A stretch of DNA of 64,000 nt from Thermoplasmata archaeon (GTDB taxonomy: Archaea > Thermoplasmatota > Thermoplasmata > Halarchaeoplasmatales > Halarchaeoplasmataceae), in NCBI GenBank assembly GCA_003560595.1, contig PWKY01000088.1:8578-72577 (forward strand), given 5' to 3'. Shown here piece by piece: positions 1,100 to 19,882 of this stretch; positions within the stretch are counted from its first letter, which is position 1; each line of letters begins with the position of its first letter. A program made the position numbers and the translations under genes. Under the pieces are notes generated by a model. That model saw nothing but the letters and a program-made list of their open reading frames with translations, searched no databases and was not told the origin of the DNA.

Positions 1100-3304
1100 A
1101 TGAAGATAGGAGAAAATAAAGTAACTTCTGTTGTGGTATGCGCTTTTTTGATGATAACAGCCATAGGTGGGGTATCAATTTTTACCAATTTTGACGTATT
1201 CCAAGCTGCAGAGGCAATAGATGTAGGGAGCAAACCGATAGTCGGTTTAGCACCGGTCGGATCAGTTCTTGACACGGATCAAGCGGATTTATCTGATATC
1301 GCTTGGAATTCAGCAGGAACGATAGCTTTAGCTGTAGGATGGTCTACCGCTGATTCAAGAGGAGTGGCTTATAGATTCGAAGCTAGAACTGGAGAATGGT
1401 TTAGACTCACACACGAGGATGGAAACATGATCTATGGGGTTACTTGGTGCGATACTACAGAAGGCGGTTCGTTTATAGTTGTTGCCGATGGAACATCTGG
1501 CACGGATAGCAGTGTGGGATATACTGATGGTTTTAACGGACTTATGCCCTTGTATGGTGGTTTAAACGGAGAAAACTTGAGATCTGTAGCTACTAATAAT
1601 ATTGACCCAAATCCAGTTGTCGTTGGTTTAAATGGAGCCTTTATGTATGATGGCACAGATTGGCAGCCCATCGGTGGTCTTCAAGGAGGAGACACTTATA
1701 ATGATATCACCTACACTGGTGGTTTTTATTACATCGTGGGGGAGAGGTTCATAGATCCTGATTATAGGGGTGTGTTTTACCGATTAGTCGATGGGGGGCA
1801 AAATGCACAGTATATTTCTCCACCAGAATACTACGACCCTGCAGAATTAAATGTTTTCATGTTCGATCTTCACGGAGTGGATGCTATAGGCGATGATGTG
1901 ATCTTGGTGGGGACAAATATTATTGATGTATACAACGAAGGTAGTTATATGGGAACACCAGTTCATTTAGAAGATCCAATGGAATATATATTCCGTGGCG
2001 TTGTATGGTCCAATGATATAGTCGCATACATCGTGGGACACGATCTAAGTAATAACGGTTTTTACTACCAATACAATATTGAATTACACAAAGTATCCGA
2101 AATACCCGGTTCTTCAGATATTAGTAACGCTCAACACGGTATTGCAGGGACCAACAGTTCACCCATGATGATTTCTGTTGGAAACTATGCTAGCGACAGC
2201 GCCTGGCAGATCTCTCAGACCTCCAGTTTTAACAACGTGATAACCGACGTAGAAACCCCGGATATACAGTGGATGAGACTTTACGATTTTGAAGATTCAG
2301 GTAAAACACAACGATTGAACTCACAGATCGATGTGAATCCGGAAGGTCAGATAGGTCGACGATATGTCATCGAAGTAGAAGTGACACACAAAATCCAGGG
2401 TTACCTAGATTCTGTGGAAGTATATGGATGGTTTGACGAAGGATTTACTGGTCAAAATAGTAACTTTCCAGAAGTTGGCCCTGATCTCCGGACTCGAGCC
2501 TTCTATTTCGAAGCTACTTATGATGGTGAACAAACGAACTTCCATCAATGGTTCCCTGATGAAATCATCGGTGACCCGATCATTCACCCAGAGATACGTT
2601 TACTGGATTGGGAATCATCTGCTACATATGGATGGGACGAGGTCAATGAACAAGACATTTGGACCATAGAATTCGTCTTTGCACCCGGAGCCCAGACGCG
2701 TTTCGCTCCTGGAGATAATGGGCAATTTCACGGCCCCCTCGGTGGTGATCATGATAAGGACTCAGCACTTAATACCCCTAACACATGGGACTTTCACATT
2801 CGTGGCAATGACGTTGGAGAAGGCGAAGACAACATGTGGGGCGAGTTCGGTATATTTAGGTTCACTTCCTTGACCCTTTCCGGCTTACCTGGTTCTTACC
2901 ATGGAGTCGGTGCACCCGGCCAGGAGATCGAATTGACAGCCGGCGAAACCGTGCTAAGGTACAGTGCTAATTGTGAACATCTGCTGCACGTTTACGTTGA
3001 AACCGACCTAAAAGGCACACTTGGCCAAAATATTCCAGCTTCTTCTTTAGAAGTGCAGGGTGGTTTTAGAGAACGGGTTGCTATAACCGCTGCGGGATAT
3101 GGTAATTCCGTTTATCTTCTCGGCGATAGTACGCCATCATACATCCCACCAAGAAACATGTATGATCACTCACTGACCTCTATCGATACATCTAATGAAG
3201 AACCAACTTCATACCAAGATATAAGGTGGTGGATAACTATACCGTCCGTTCCTGAAGATACATACTCTGCGAACATAGTTTACGTGCTTGAACACAGTGG
3301 ATGA
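1100..3304 (+). CDS. Secreted surface protein: signal peptide, beta-propeller-like repeats, Ig-like middle domain, WxL-like C-terminal beta domain (paralog 1)
   Basis: Basic N-terminus plus hydrophobic stretch; repeated L-x-D/G-V-x-W...h-h-V-G blades; ends WWITIPSVPEDTYSANIVYVLEHSG; no C-terminal TM; acidic. Confidence 0.75.
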   Translation: MKIGENKVTSVVVCAFLMITAIGGVSIFTNFDVFQAAEAIDVGSKPIVGLAPVGSVLDTDQADLSDIAWNSAGTIALAVGWSTADSRGVAYRFEARTGEWFRLTHEDGNMIYGVTWCDTTEGGSFIVVADGTSGTDSSVGYTDGFNGLMPLYGGLNGENLRSVATNNIDPNPVVVGLNGAFMYDGTDWQPIGGLQGGDTYNDITYTGGFYYIVGERFIDPDYRGVFYRLVDGGQNAQYISPPEYYDPAELNVFMFDLHGVDAIGDDVILVGTNIIDVYNEGSYMGTPVHLEDPMEYIFRGVVWSNDIVAYIVGHDLSNNGFYYQYNIELHKVSEIPGSSDISNAQHGIAGTNSSPMMISVGNYASDSAWQISQTSSFNNVITDVETPDIQWMRLYDFEDSGKTQRLNSQIDVNPEGQIGRRYVIEVEVTHKIQGYLDSVEVYGWFDEGFTGQNSNFPEVGPDLRTRAFYFEATYDGEQTNFHQWFPDEIIGDPIIHPEIRLLDWESSATYGWDEVNEQDIWTIEFVFAPGAQTRFAPGDNGQFHGPLGGDHDKDSALNTPNTWDFHIRGNDVGEGEDNMWGEFGIFRFTSLTLSGLPGSYHGVGAPGQEIELTAGETVLRYSANCEHLLHVYVETDLKGTLGQNIPASSLEVQGGFRERVAITAAGYGNSVYLLGDSTPSYIPPRNMYDHSLTSIDTSNEEPTSYQDIRWWITIPSVPEDTYSANIVYVLEHSG

Positions 3305-3353
3305 TGTTCACTAAATAGGCATCTTCTATATCCCGGATGGACGAGAGAACATC
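3303..3353 (+). terminator. Stem-loop immediately after paralog 1
   Basis: Outer stem GATGTTC...GAACATC with an inner GCATC/GATGG pairing; a related hairpin follows paralog 2. Confidence 0.35.
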
Positions 3354-3461
3354 GATACATGAACCCGATATCATAAATATGATAATAATATACGTAATTA
3401 GAAGGTGATCTAATTGATATATGCATATATTATTCATAAGCAAAAAATACTAGATGTTTAC

Positions 3462-3512
3462 TAATCATTTTTAAATACTAGTGTTTGCATATCTCAACAA
3501 ACGGTGTTTCAG
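3462..3512 (+). promoter_or_regulatory. Duplicated promoter/leader of paralog 2
   Basis: CATTTTTAAATACTAGTGTTTGCATATCTCAACAAACGGTGTTTC matches the 1050-1099 region. Confidence 0.6.
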
Positions 3513-17941: not shown

Positions 17942-19101
17942 GTTTTACTCCCTCCCATATCAGTGCGGTTTCGGATCGAAAGCAAAAGTAAAGCTTTCAT
18001 CACTTTCTTAGTATAAACCGGTTCGCCTTCTTTCCGATCCCAAGCTTTAAGCCGATCTCCATCGACACCTTCTATAAGATTTATGGAATTGATTATGACC
18101 TTTTTACCGTAATCAGAAATCTTATCCGAAACGATAGCCGCTATGAGCAGTATCTTTCCACGGACCAATAAGATTTCGGTCCCGTCCGATGTTTTTATCA
18201 ATTTAGGTGTGTTCGGCTTGAGTTTCTTACCACTTCTAATGTGATCACGTATTTCACTGACTATATTTCTAGCAGAGATCACTCCTCTTTTAGGTGAATA
18301 TTTATGCTTATACCACTTCATCAAAAGCATCCCTTTACCATGGAATAAAAATAGATCATCTATCGGCATCACCTTTGACATAGTCTTTTCCACTGGACGA
18401 GAAACCTTTACACTCTTCCTTTCGACTTTATCCGAGGCATCCTTAACGAATTCTGAAACGAAGAACTCTTCTTGATATACCCTTTTTAGGTCCTCAACTT
18501 CCACTATTATCGGATCAAGATCATCTGCCTCATTTATTTGTTCTAGTAGTTCATTGATACTATCTTCCAGCGGTTCGATCCTCATATCCTCAAGTTCATA
18601 TCTTAGATCACGTGCTTTCAATTTGTTCAAAAATTCTTGGTAGCGTTTTTGCCATCTGTCTCTTTTTTCCAAGTTGAATGATAGATCAAGAAGTTCTTCT
18701 GCTTCATCGACGTATTCCGCTACATTTTGGCATATGATATCGTCTCGTATAGCTCTAGATTCAGTAATCCATTTTTGATACTTATCGATAATTGCCTTTC
18801 TATTTTTAGCTTTATCTAGTTCCTTCTCTAATGGTTTAATATGATAACCTTCGGCAGCCCATTCAAGGACCTGAGACTCGATTTTGTCGTCTTTTCCACT
18901 ACTCGATATTTCAACGGTATCAAAATCTTCGAAATATTCAAACACACCATTTATCGCATCTTTACTTAGACCGAGTGCTACAAGATCTTTTTTCTTTAGC
19001 TCGGCAAGATCATTCATAGAACTTATGCCGGAATCTACTAGGGTCTGTGCACGTTTCTCGCCGATACCTCTGATTTTCTTTAGATCATTTTTAACATCCA
19101 T
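17938..19101 (-). CDS. Helix-hairpin-helix protein with helical middle and C-terminal longin/roadblock-like domain
   Basis: N-terminal LKKIRGIGEKRAQTLVDSGI HhH; C-terminal IDDLFLFHGKGMLL...ILLVRGKILLIAAIV...LKAWD resembles the insert in 10919 and 20552. Confidence 0.65.
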   Translation of the reverse strand: MDVKNDLKKIRGIGEKRAQTLVDSGISSMNDLAELKKKDLVALGLSKDAINGVFEYFEDFDTVEISSSGKDDKIESQVLEWAAEGYHIKPLEKELDKAKNRKAIIDKYQKWITESRAIRDDIICQNVAEYVDEAEELLDLSFNLEKRDRWQKRYQEFLNKLKARDLRYELEDMRIEPLEDSINELLEQINEADDLDPIIVEVEDLKRVYQEEFFVSEFVKDASDKVERKSVKVSRPVEKTMSKVMPIDDLFLFHGKGMLLMKWYKHKYSPKRGVISARNIVSEIRDHIRSGKKLKPNTPKLIKTSDGTEILLVRGKILLIAAIVSDKISDYGKKVIINSINLIEGVDGDRLKAWDRKEGEPVYTKKVMKALLLLSIRNRTDMGGSKT

Positions 19102-19105
19102 GATC

Positions 19106-19882
19106 TCACCTCTTCAATACCTCGAAACGACCGTTATCAAATATCAAAGGCATGAAACCTCTTTTATGGTCGGTCTGTCGCATCTTTACCACTTTTAGGT
19201 AAATGTTTGTGCCGGATTCCATCTCTTCTGCTTTTAGGTGTAAGATACCATCTGAAAGGAAGTCTTCTACACCATAGATACCATAAACGTCTTTACCCTT
19301 TGGTATCTCGGATATAAGGAAGGTAGTTAGACCTATGTCCCTAAGACCTTCGAAGAAGTAAAAAAGATCCTTCCTCGGTGTATCAAATTCGTTCACTGCA
19401 TAAAGTGCGGCCAAGGAATCGAAAGCGAGTATTTCGCAGCCAAAGGCGTCTTTGTACTTCTTGATCACTTTTAATATCGATCCGAGCCAATCTATATCCT
19501 CTTCTTTACCGGCTTTACCTGTATCTTTTCTTACCTTTGCCAGGTCGATTATAACAGGATTAGACATGCCTTTCAAAGGCATACCTAGATGTCCGATGTG
19601 TGTAATTATGCTCTCTTTACCCTGTTCTAACGAGATATACATACCCTTTATCTTATGTTTTTTATAAGCGTTGTAGAGTATGCTGAATGAGAGAGATGTT
19701 TTCATGGAACCGCTGTTCCCGGCAACCAACACTATGAAACCTTCTGGAACTCCGCCTTCCATTTTCGGATCCAATCCTTTTACTTCGGTTGGTATCCTTT
19801 TAATCCCTATGTCGCTAGAATCTTTTTTCTTAAAAGTCCTTTTTCTCTTATCCGTATCTGTTTTCTTTGTACTCCATGCCAA
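19106..19882 (-). CDS. Single-domain KaiC/RAD55-family ATPase
   Basis: RIPTEVKGLD..MEGGVP, Walker A GNSGSMKT, YISLEQ, FDSL, LSDGILHL, VVKMR. Confidence 0.9.
   Translation of the reverse strand: MAWSTKKTDTDKRKRTFKKKDSSDIGIKRIPTEVKGLDPKMEGGVPEGFIVLVAGNSGSMKTSLSFSILYNAYKKHKIKGMYISLEQGKESIITHIGHLGMPLKGMSNPVIIDLAKVRKDTGKAGKEEDIDWLGSILKVIKKYKDAFGCEILAFDSLAALYAVNEFDTPRKDLFYFFEGLRDIGLTTFLISEIPKGKDVYGIYGVEDFLSDGILHLKAEEMESGTNIYLKVVKMRQTDHKRGFMPLIFDNGRFEVLKR

Follow-up and report, generated by a model that had tools for sequence, protein, structure and literature searches.

Why would a Thermoplasmata archaeon keep the motor subunits of a metal chelatase when no CobN/BchH partner for them is found in its genome? 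The question is raised by a gene cluster at positions 1100-19882 of a 64,000-nucleotide stretch of contig PWKY01000088.1 (assembly GCA_003560595.1), and this whole stretch is called the window here. To our knowledge, ChlI/ChlD-type motors have been tied only to partners of the CobN/BchH family, which move metal into or out of tetrapyrroles. A first-pass annotation of the window had read the cluster as an envelope-linked machine of AAA+ and VWA proteins that assembles, releases or senses exported surface proteins under KaiC control, and our analysis supports this interpretation in part. The cluster is a conserved, so far undescribed, CobN-independent ChlI/ChlD-type system, whose function we infer. 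Its six-gene core is composed of two surface proteins (exp469 and exp214), two ChlI-like ATPases (I-type subunits TMccChlI and ChlI349) and two ChlD-like subunits with dead AAA modules (D-type subunits VWA854 and 264). Five ChlI-like AAA modules are encoded in the window, one each in TMccChlI, ChlI349 and 264 and two in VWA854; this number, already given by the annotation, was confirmed by Pfam, NCBIfam, alignments and profile matches. Literature searches returned no description of the system, and the supplementary arCOG tables may list its genes under arCOG numbers.

Conservation of the six-gene core

Loci were fetched around orthologs from genomes of the same class and from records of metagenome-assembled genomes (MAGs), all window proteins were mapped onto them by tblastn, and co-occurrence was counted in 151 genomes of the class Thermoplasmata, whose families are numbered here with f1 as the window's own. 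A clear VWA854 ortholog was present in 31 genomes and a full-length TMccChlI in 29; both occurred together in 25, or in 27 when fragments were counted. Six genomes of 57-91% completeness had VWA854 without TMccChlI, three of them with ChlI fragments at contig ends, and two (64% and 83% complete) had TMccChlI without VWA854. Strong exp214 orthologs were found in 29 of the 151 genomes, all within the union of 35 carriers. The order exp469-exp214-TMccChlI-ChlI349 was kept in all 18 genomes with long enough contigs, so that exp469 lies directly upstream of exp214 and TMccChlI in each of them, and the 264-like gene directly follows VWA854 in 18 of 19 genomes (8 kb apart in G073). The six core genes, and no others, form one uninterrupted co-directional array in two genomes of f23 (G082 and G098). 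They are co-directional with extra surface-protein genes in between in G025 (f2) and G047 (f13), and the two halves are convergent in f1 and in G033.

A check set in advance was whether the exported genes accompany the AAA/VWA genes in related genomes. The genes at 5785 and 7128 (exp469 and exp214) do so, but those at 1100 and 3504 accompany the system only in f1, f2 and f13. The extent of the machine is therefore narrower than first drawn: the six core genes stand, while the beta-propeller, KaiC, helix-hairpin-helix (HhH), DUF835-TPR, 493-aa and coiled-coil proteins are lineage-specific additions. Of the 18 genomes of f1, 4 have the whole system and the rest have neither module, among them G008, which is 99% complete and of the same genus as two carriers. 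The core follows a coherent vertical pattern in 10 or more families, and it looks like an old housekeeping or envelope function. In f28 (G125/G132; loci L127 and L128) a 908-aa protein matching only the VWA part of VWA854 stands with a 670-aa ChlI whose N-terminus is unlike the transmembrane (TM) and coiled-coil part of TMccChlI, and this pair may be a third variant of the system.

Absence of CobN and position of the ChlI domains

The large subunit of a true chelatase was said by the annotation to be missing, and this holds beyond the window: PF02514 (CobN/BchH) gave no match in the window's own genome (92.7% complete) or in any of the 35 carrier genomes. The same search found PF02514 in 18 of the 151 class genomes, all of f6, f7 and f18 and beside ordinary ChlI/ChlD genes, and in 5 of 14 control genomes. 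In a quick maximum-likelihood tree, one clade gathered 40 CobN-less Thermoplasmata rows (20 TMccChlI, 17 ChlI349 and 3 of a second system described below), with a Shimodaira-Hasegawa-like approximate likelihood ratio (SH-aLRT) support of 100 and a branch length of 0.61, apart from the CobN-linked bacterial rows and those of f6. The AAA proteins thus stand apart from CobN-linked ChlI sequences, an outcome in favour of the annotation. ChlI349 was monophyletic (SH-aLRT 99) and the sister paralog of TMccChlI, and the subtrees of the two mirror each other. The nearest relatives outside the system, the ChlI-VWA-ChlI triplets, come from Desulfobacterota, Chlorobi, Firmicutes, Methanosarcina and Methanoperedens. 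These findings, read from the sequences, suggest that the system is CobN-independent, is not a chelatase and is specific to the class Thermoplasmata.

Among 48 triplet or fusion loci of the ChlI-VWA-ChlI type (L064-L111), 35 carry a CobN-like gene within the fetched flank, and two ChlI paralogs per chelatase locus seem to be common in anaerobes. A second CobN-less ChlI/VWA operon was noticed in relatives of the window organism (L135 at G016:C23:1-9000, L136 and L137). The L135 operon holds genes for a surface protein anchored by a C-terminal TM, for two ChlI proteins (an active one extended by HhH and a Zn-ribbon, and a dead one with a coiled coil), for a VWA protein and for a coiled-coil protein that ends in a TM helix; a search of the window's own genome with VWA854 as query did not find this operon.

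The catalytic subunits

TMccChlI matches Pfam AAA_lid_2, Mg_chelatase and AAA_5 and the NCBIfam models TIGR02442 (4e-131) and BchI-ChlI (TIGR02030, 9e-115); ChlI349 likewise matches Pfam Mg_chelatase, AAA_lid_2 and AAA_5 and the models TIGR02442 and TIGR02030 (the latter at 1.7e-109). The TIGR02030 scores of both are under the equivalog cut-off of 466.95 bits. AAA_3 (MoxR proper, of the COG0714 type) is not among the Pfam matches listed for these ATPases, whose best NCBIfam models are chelatase subunits. By family scores and motif table, both proteins are I-type subunits, that is, ChlI-family AAA+ proteins with Walker A and B, sensor 1, arginine finger and sensor 2.

The annotation described the 7772 protein, TMccChlI, as intact and membrane-tethered, and we agree on both points. 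In the window it carries Walker A (GEKGTAKS), Walker B (DE), sensor 1, arginine finger and sensor 2, and the last four motifs are kept in 20 of 20 orthologs. Walker A reads GxKGTGKS in 16 of these and GEKGTAKS in the remaining 4, which are all of f1. MCM proteins use a similar G-T-A-K-S P-loop, and we therefore take the GEKGTAKS form to be functional. Hydropathy and alignment show four N-terminal hydrophobic segments followed by a coiled coil of about 180 residues, both kept across families, and the 4-TM anchor is conserved in all 20 orthologs; loop 1 of the TM domain has a conserved N-x-[ST] sequon. At 8279-8760 (residues ~170-330) the coiled coil contains the repeat EEEE-x-LR-x-K-[ED][ED]-E at a spacing of about 28 or 56 residues. 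This EEEExLRxKEEE repeat is present in 2-4 copies in 18 of 20 orthologs, in one copy in L028 and in none in L051, and it is better conserved than a generic coiled coil requires. Orthologs outside f1 (L023, L025, L031 and others) have 200-450 extra N-terminal residues ahead of the TM domain, made up of a Zn-ribbon (CPVCG...CxxCG) and a long, probably disordered acidic segment, both of them missing from the TMccChlI of the window.

For ChlI349 the E-to-Q change in Walker B was correctly seen in the window (DQ), but it is not a trait of the family: 12 of 17 orthologs have DE and 5 of 17, of f1 and f10, have DQ. According to the detailed tally the motifs are complete in 12 of 17 orthologs, and a G-to-A P-loop occurs in 3 others. 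ChlI349 of the DQ type should bind ATP without hydrolysing it. ATP hydrolysis would be possible in the two I-type proteins only, because only they keep the catalytic motifs. The proposal of a ring with few active sites thus suits the window organism and its family, but most orthologous systems keep the catalytic motifs of both I-type subunits, and the window organism stands at the degenerate end of the catalytic range.

The dead subunits

VWA854 runs in the order pre-VWA, VWA, AAA', AAA', where each AAA' carries a 4-Cys motif and neither has a P-loop. Its pre-VWA segment is ChlD-like (TIGR02442 positions 406-640). The metal ion-dependent adhesion site (MIDAS) is complete, with D104, S106, S108, T171 and D204 invariant in 11 of 11 VWA854 orthologs; DxSSS is likewise found in 11 of 11 and Walker A in 0 of 11. 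VWA854 therefore has the intact MIDAS (DxSxS...T...D) of the VWA partners in MoxR systems. The family profile matched ChlI (6l8d, 2.6e-28; also 8osf), BchI (1g8p, 1.2e-23) and the VWA domain of BchD (2x31_A, 6.5e-20). No signal peptide or TM segment was found in VWA854 by hydropathy. The classical D-type order, with the AAA-like part at the N-terminus, a linker and a C-terminal MIDAS-VWA, is here reversed, with the AAA part duplicated and an extra AAA' encoded by a separate gene. The VWA-AAA'-AAA' architecture is rare and was recovered, among 1.84 billion representatives, in about 12-13 clusters (50% identity); classical ChlD-type proteins (620-720 aa, VWA C-terminal) follow in the same search, only below E ~1e-96.

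The separate gene encodes 264, which the annotation had called a dead standalone module, and rightly so: it has no Pfam match, matches TIGR02442 at 7.5e-22, aligns with ChlI along its length and is without Walker A and B. Among 21 distinct orthologs (the motif table has 22 rows, one of them a duplicate), Walker B DE is found in none and GxxxxGK[ST] in 7; the 264 proteins of f1 also lack the 4-Cys insert and the P-loop.

Surface proteins

The four proteins encoded at 1100, 3504, 5785 and 7128 all carry export signals as read from hydropathy. Each of the core proteins exp469 and exp214 combines a signal-like hydrophobic segment at the N-terminus with a second segment at the C-terminus, and the 1100 and 3504 proteins have a single N-terminal one. 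In alignments, exp469 shows an NTGNIPL motif and a basic, K/R/E-rich cytoplasmic tail of variable length; its look-alikes by a protein language model are archaeal surface proteins of the NPCBM_assoc/NEW3/CARDB type (0.91-0.92), which is taken as a lead only. The tail of exp214 carries a conserved R-x4-N-x-LA motif with R195 and A202 invariant. An AlphaFold2 (AF2) model of exp214 (pLDDT 69.7) has a beta-sandwich at 27-160 and a helix at 174-198, and Foldseek returned generic Ig-like matches only (best E 3.6e-3), with weak FlaF/FlaG matches at ranks 38 and 43. Families of archaeal type IV pili and archaella (PilB/ArlI, TadC/ArlJ) are absent from the Pfam matches of the cluster proteins, for which no prediction aimed at class III pilin signals was made. 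Complex prediction of exp469 and exp214 with the TM domain of TMccChlI (residues 1-150) gave 0.31, 0.33 and 0.35 in three runs; the controls gave 0.00 and 0.00 when the partner was replaced and 0.40 when exp469 was replaced, and we count these scores neither for nor against a contact.

The accessory 734-aa protein has no Pfam or NCBIfam match. Its AF2 model (mean pLDDT 66.5, 80-90 in the propeller part) gave integrin alpha ectodomains as top Foldseek matches (E 2.4e-11, TM-score 0.2-0.33), together with generic WD40/Kelch propellers. At these TM-scores the integrin matches do not speak for homology and reflect the layout of a propeller followed by beta-sandwiches. A protein-atlas search with this protein was uninformative (best score 0.75), and a word search found 6 homologs. 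P0004, a 727-aa protein of the window's contig that we take as the 3504-5699 reading frame, is 47% identical to it over the full length. The copy number of the propeller proteins varies: G014 (L020) has one, the window has two, and G020 (L016) and G036 (L022) have several, one of these frames being 1395 aa long.

A proposed motor at the membrane and its possible client

We lean slightly towards the reading that a chelatase-type AAA+-VWA motor has been reused outside tetrapyrrole chemistry, fixed to the membrane and with the co-operonic surface proteins as its client. By analogy with Mg- and Co-chelatase motors, the ring that hydrolyses ATP would be made of TMccChlI and ChlI349, with the TM domain and the coiled-coil stalks suspending it on the cytoplasmic side of the membrane. 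VWA854 and 264 would bring three dead AAA modules per pair, so that two pairs could make a six-module D-type scaffold. This scaffold would present the MIDAS-VWA domain as a "hand", and ATP-driven movement of the ring would pass through it to the client. Kaur et al. 2020 (PMC7159879) describe the vWA domain as capturing a substrate peptide and the ATPase as passing a conformational change to the vWA-bound substrate, and a cryo-electron microscopy study of CobST (2026 preprint) reports that ATP brings the VWA domain to the AAA+ pore. The client would replace CobN and is most likely the exp469/exp214 pair, reached through the TM segments or the conserved cytoplasmic tails; these proteins are the best candidates because they are the only non-motor products of the minimal operon and the catalytic subunit carries a membrane anchor throughout. 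Such a machine may assemble, hold or switch a cell-surface complex from inside, and the additions of f1 (the propellers and the module of KaiC, HhH, DUF835-TPR and 493-aa proteins) probably feed regulatory input into it. Assembly, release or sensing of the surface proteins is what we infer from the operon structure and the membrane tether.

Several points weigh against this reading. The composition and stoichiometry of the ring are taken from analogy, and the ties of the surface proteins to the motor are those of gene order and co-occurrence. The ectodomains lie across the membrane from the ATPase, which leaves only TM helices and short tails within its reach; the tail motif of exp214 is short and the tail of exp469 varies in length. 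The two halves of the system are on different contigs or about 60 kb apart in f9 and f17, and weaker exp214-like paralogs occur in genomes that lack the system. Because the MAGs are related to one another, their co-occurrence counts cannot be taken as independent and serve as a description, not as a statistical test. The tree of 76 ChlI domains came from a quick IQ-TREE search with a midpoint root, for which a random draw of 30 of the 80 bacterial rows was used. The five runs listed as bearing this stretch are guessed to be DNA, from salt-lake and soda-lake metagenomes, and no RNA run is among them.

A bolder form of the reading, which we hold to be rather doubtful, is an ATP-driven inside-out actuator, in which the motor would pull the TM helices or tails of the two Ig-like single-pass proteins via the MIDAS-VWA domain and the scaffold of dead AAA modules and so switch or assemble an extracellular complex, as an archaeal analogue of integrin-type transmembrane mechanical signalling. 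In some lineages the propeller proteins, with their integrin-alpha-like architecture, would join the extracellular complex, and KaiC would act as a gate in some families.

The motor may instead be a general MoxR-like chaperone that matures a client encoded elsewhere, such as a metalloenzyme or a respiratory complex, with the surface proteins merely co-transcribed or co-regulated. This would agree with the account of Kaur et al. 2020 (PMC7159879), in which the AAA+/VWA pairs of the clade typically mature or remodel unrelated enzyme complexes, and with the separation of VWA854-264 from the surface-protein/ChlI module in f9 and f17. It is nevertheless unlikely in our view, as the minimal operons of G082 and G098 combine the four motor genes with the two surface-protein genes only, exp214 orthologs follow the motor genes from one genome to the next, and the 4-TM anchor found in 20 of 20 orthologs and the strict exp469-exp214-TMccChlI order would be left unexplained.

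A cryptic class-I chelatase or dechelatase motor, with a substrate subunit unrelated to CobN/BchH and with a tetrapyrrole or some other cofactor as the target of metal insertion or removal, would suit the best family matches (TIGR02442 "putative cobaltochelatase" and BchI-ChlI) and the CobN-linked nature of the closest outside relatives, and all known members of the ChlI/ChlD subfamily reportedly serve chelatases or the HmuS dechelatase (PMC12583661). We consider it improbable, because PF02514 was found in none of the 35 carriers although the search does find it in class genomes and controls, the ChlI proteins form a separate long-branched clade, the D-type part is rebuilt with the VWA first, two dead AAA modules and a separate third, the catalytic subunit is membrane-anchored, and the minimal operon holds no co-conserved cytoplasmic H-like candidate.

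A conflict, defence or surface-exclusion system, in which an NTPase/VWA sensor-effector is coupled to variable surface proteins, is more improbable still: the patchiness within f1, the varying copy number of the propeller/sandwich proteins, the adjacent STAND NTPase-TPR gene and the vWA-AAA+ conflict systems known for MoxR (PMC7159879) would suit it, but PADLOC matched none of nine of the 10 proteins searched and ChlI349 only by one generic AAA match (5.1e-7), Pfam and NCBIfam scans of the cluster found no nuclease, protease, TIR or other effector domain, and a mobile island would be expected to be less coherent than the core tree with its mirrored TMccChlI and ChlI349 subtrees.

The start of the VWA gene

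The annotation placed two dead modules behind a MIDAS-VWA domain in the gene at 15380, which is correct, but the start of this gene lies about 107 codons upstream of the first ATG. This ATG is at 17620, and the MIDAS sequence DTSSS lies just upstream of it. The true gene spans ~15380-17941, because the frame upstream of 17620 is open and conserved: it continues up to 17944, ~107-108 codons beyond the ATG, through a stretch that carries the pre-VWA segment and the MIDAS, and ten orthologs align from residues 2-9 of the extended VWA854. Public records name these proteins "VWA domain-containing protein", with N-terminally truncated gene calls of 745-817 aa.

ATG, GTG and TTG are missing at the conserved N-terminus in the window and in four relatives (G004, G020, G016 and G014; loci L013, L015, L017 and L020). 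All five, which belong to one family, have ATA there, 6-9 nt past a G-rich sequence of the Shine-Dalgarno type (GGAGG in three genomes and GGGGG in the other two), and the ATA (17941-17939, minus strand) overlaps the stop codon of the upstream gene as ATAG or ATAA, the stop being TAG in the window. More distant orthologs have ATG at this position. The start of VWA854 is thus probably this ATA, and coupled re-initiation at AUA is the simplest candidate reading of the pattern. A fusion of the HhH and VWA proteins by -1 frameshifting was judged less likely, with in-frame stops 2-6 codons upstream of the ATA in 4 of 5 genomes and no shared slippery heptamer. Read contigs spanning the region (17803-17961) came from run X1 only, which is possibly the source of this DNA; those of X3 and X4 end short. 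A literature search on AUA start codons in archaea returned nothing relevant. As non-canonical initiation conserved in five genomes, the probable ATA start would be rare among archaea.

Gene layout and lineage-specific genes

The features of the cluster are listed in Table 1. The listing and translation of open reading frames (ORFs) confirmed the two convergent arrays of the annotation, with a plus-strand array at 1100-12400 meeting a minus-strand array at 12403-19882; the coiled-coil gene at 13624-14583 (+) sits inside the latter. Start and stop codons overlap at the exp469/exp214, exp214/TMccChlI, TMccChlI/ChlI349, HhH/VWA854 and VWA854/264 junctions. The overlaps claimed across 5785-10824 are indeed there, in the forms ATGA (at exp469/exp214), TGATG and TTGATG. 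KaiC and HhH are 4 nt apart and the remaining junctions have longer gaps. The genes flanking the cluster are ordinary (a class-III aminotransferase, OsmC and a STAND-TPR protein). The ORFs at 13527-14027 (-) and 11542-12183 (-) and other S/L/F-rich ORFs antisense to purine-rich, K/E-rich genes look like composition artefacts.

Table 1. Genes of the cluster at 1100-19882 of the window, in order of position
Gene or product	Position	Strand	Features
Accessory exported protein, 734 aa	1100..3304	+	N-terminal hydrophobic signal/anchor, beta-propeller at ~52-365 followed by domains of the beta-sandwich type; paralog of 3504-5699
Accessory exported protein, 731 aa	3504..5699	+	One N-terminal hydrophobic segment; paralog of 1100-3304
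Core surface protein exp469, 448 aa from ATG at 5785	5785..7131	+	Signal peptide, multi-domain beta-sandwich ectodomain, C-terminal TM helix, basic tail
Core surface protein exp214	7128..7772	+	Signal peptide, one Ig-like beta-sandwich, C-terminal TM helix, short cytoplasmic tail
Core TMccChlI, 668 aa	7772..9778	+	4-TM N-terminal domain, ~180-aa coiled coil, ChlI-type AAA+ module
Core soluble ChlI-type AAA+ protein ChlI349	9775..10824	+	Walker A intact, Walker B DQ here
Accessory 493-aa protein	10919..12400	+	N-terminal alpha/beta domain, degenerate STAND/AAA_16-like region, helical C-terminus
Accessory DUF835 and TPR protein	12403..13521	-	Pfam DUF835 (2.1e-27), TPR families
Accessory K/E-rich coiled-coil protein, 319 aa	13624..14583	+	Seen in f1 only
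Core third D-type subunit 264	14589..15383	-	Degenerate ChlI-like AAA module
Core VWA854, 853-854 aa	~15380..17941	-	ChlD-like pre-VWA, MIDAS-VWA, two dead ChlI-like AAA modules; probable ATA start
Accessory HhH protein, 387 aa	17938..19101	-	N-terminal helix-hairpin-helix, helical middle, C-terminal alpha/beta domain
Accessory single-domain KaiC-family ATPase, 258 aa	19106..19882	-	PF06745 at 2.5e-38

The KaiC and DUF835-TPR assignments of the annotation were borne out by Pfam (Table 1). KaiC scores 132.2 bits against PF06745 (cut-off 26.6) and also matches the NCBIfam KaiC models; its P-loop in the window reads GNSGSMKT, with Met at the usual Gly before Lys. The protein is 82-84% identical in f1 relatives and 52-61% in f2, f5 and f10. 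In these four families the KaiC-HhH pair adjoins VWA854, and HhH is always paired with KaiC. The pair was not seen within 10 kb of the system in f9, f13, f17, f21 and f23, and no KaiB-like partner was seen. Control by KaiC, as first proposed, could apply at most to f1, f2, f5 and f10. The HhH protein matches Pfam HHH_5 at 8e-7, and its family profile, searched against PDB sequences, matched through the HhH part only (eL32, Hel308).

The putatively longin-like domain said to be shared by the 17938 and 10919 proteins was recovered by profile-profile comparison (hhalign 89.7%, E 1.8e-6) as ~120 residues common to the C-terminus of the 387-aa protein and the N-terminus of the 493-aa protein, but pairwise BLASTP of the two was not significant. 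The 493-aa protein shows a weak AAA_16 match, and its orthologs are found only in f1 loci, besides a partial match of 29% in L126 (f10). A 1199-aa STAND NTPase (AAA_16) with many TPR_12 repeats adjoins the cluster at 20468-24067 (+), and the 493-aa protein resembles the STAND NTPase region (residues ~94-328) in relatives. One to three copies of DUF835-TPR lie beside the system in f1, f2, f10, f12 and f5; Galperin et al. 2018 (PMC5847659) list DUF835 as "iKaiC", an inactivated KaiC domain. The 319-aa coiled-coil protein has weak Pfam matches only, is 38-43% identical in L013, L018 and L020, and is always on the strand opposite to its neighbours.

Relation to known systems and significance

Like BchI/BchD (ChlI/ChlD) and CobS/CobT, the system combines a ChlI-type AAA+ protein with all motifs (TIGR02030 at 1e-109 to 1e-115) and a partner with degenerate AAA, MIDAS-VWA and the ChlD pre-VWA segment. 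Unlike them, it has no CobN/BchH in the window's genome or any other carrier searched, its catalytic subunit bears a 4-TM anchor and a long coiled coil, two co-evolving I-type paralogs stand where chelatases have one, the D-type part is permuted (VWA N-terminal) and split with the third dead module as a separate gene, the ChlI proteins form a separate clade, and the system is always linked to two surface-protein genes. The CobN-linked ChlI-VWA-ChlI triplets (TIGR02442 "putative cobaltochelatase" type) also have two ChlI genes per locus, with ChlI domains 45-50% identical and a VWA segment 31-37% identical to residues ~32-260 of VWA854, but the TM/coiled-coil extension and exp469/exp214 were not seen in triplet loci with the window proteins as queries. 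The second CobN-less system (L135) is a sister clade (joint SH-aLRT 100), also with no CobN-like gene nearby; its ChlI has no TM domain, however, its MIDAS is degenerate (DRSFY), and its link to the membrane is a separate coiled-coil protein with a C-terminal TM.

Likeness of another kind is found in the MoxR-VWA pairs (RavA-ViaA, NorQ-NorD, CbbQ-CbbO and CoxD-CoxE), which join an AAA+ protein of the helix-2-insert clade to a VWA partner (PMC7159879), and in the predicted archaeal secretion system of arCOG01314, for which PMC5898192 describes an AAA+ ATPase and a vWA protein joined to membrane proteins and Ig-like surface proteins. Those systems use MoxR/GvpN-family ATPases (COG0714), and the vWA protein of arCOG01314 is secreted, whereas the window system has ChlI-type ATPases, a VWA protein without signal peptide or TM and three dead AAA modules. 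The single-domain KaiC and the DUF835 protein recall archaeal KaiC signalling, but KaiC/HhH occurs only in f1, f2, f5 and f10. Makarova and colleagues reportedly proposed KaiC hubs in 2017 (in mBio). KaiC ATPases and vWA/MoxR pairs are put forward as regulators of archaeal surface structures in PMC4858521.

The system assigns a context to genes of uncultured Thermoplasmata that are unnamed or called "VWA domain-containing protein", and its six genes would offer a defined set with which to study how force reaches a client from an AAA+/MIDAS machine. A reuse of the ChlI/ChlD motor outside tetrapyrrole chemistry would put this motor beside MoxR as a portable mechanical module. If the inside-out actuator were true, this would be the founding case of a chelatase-independent, membrane-tethered ChlI/ChlD motor built from the parts of the chlorophyll and B12 chelatases.

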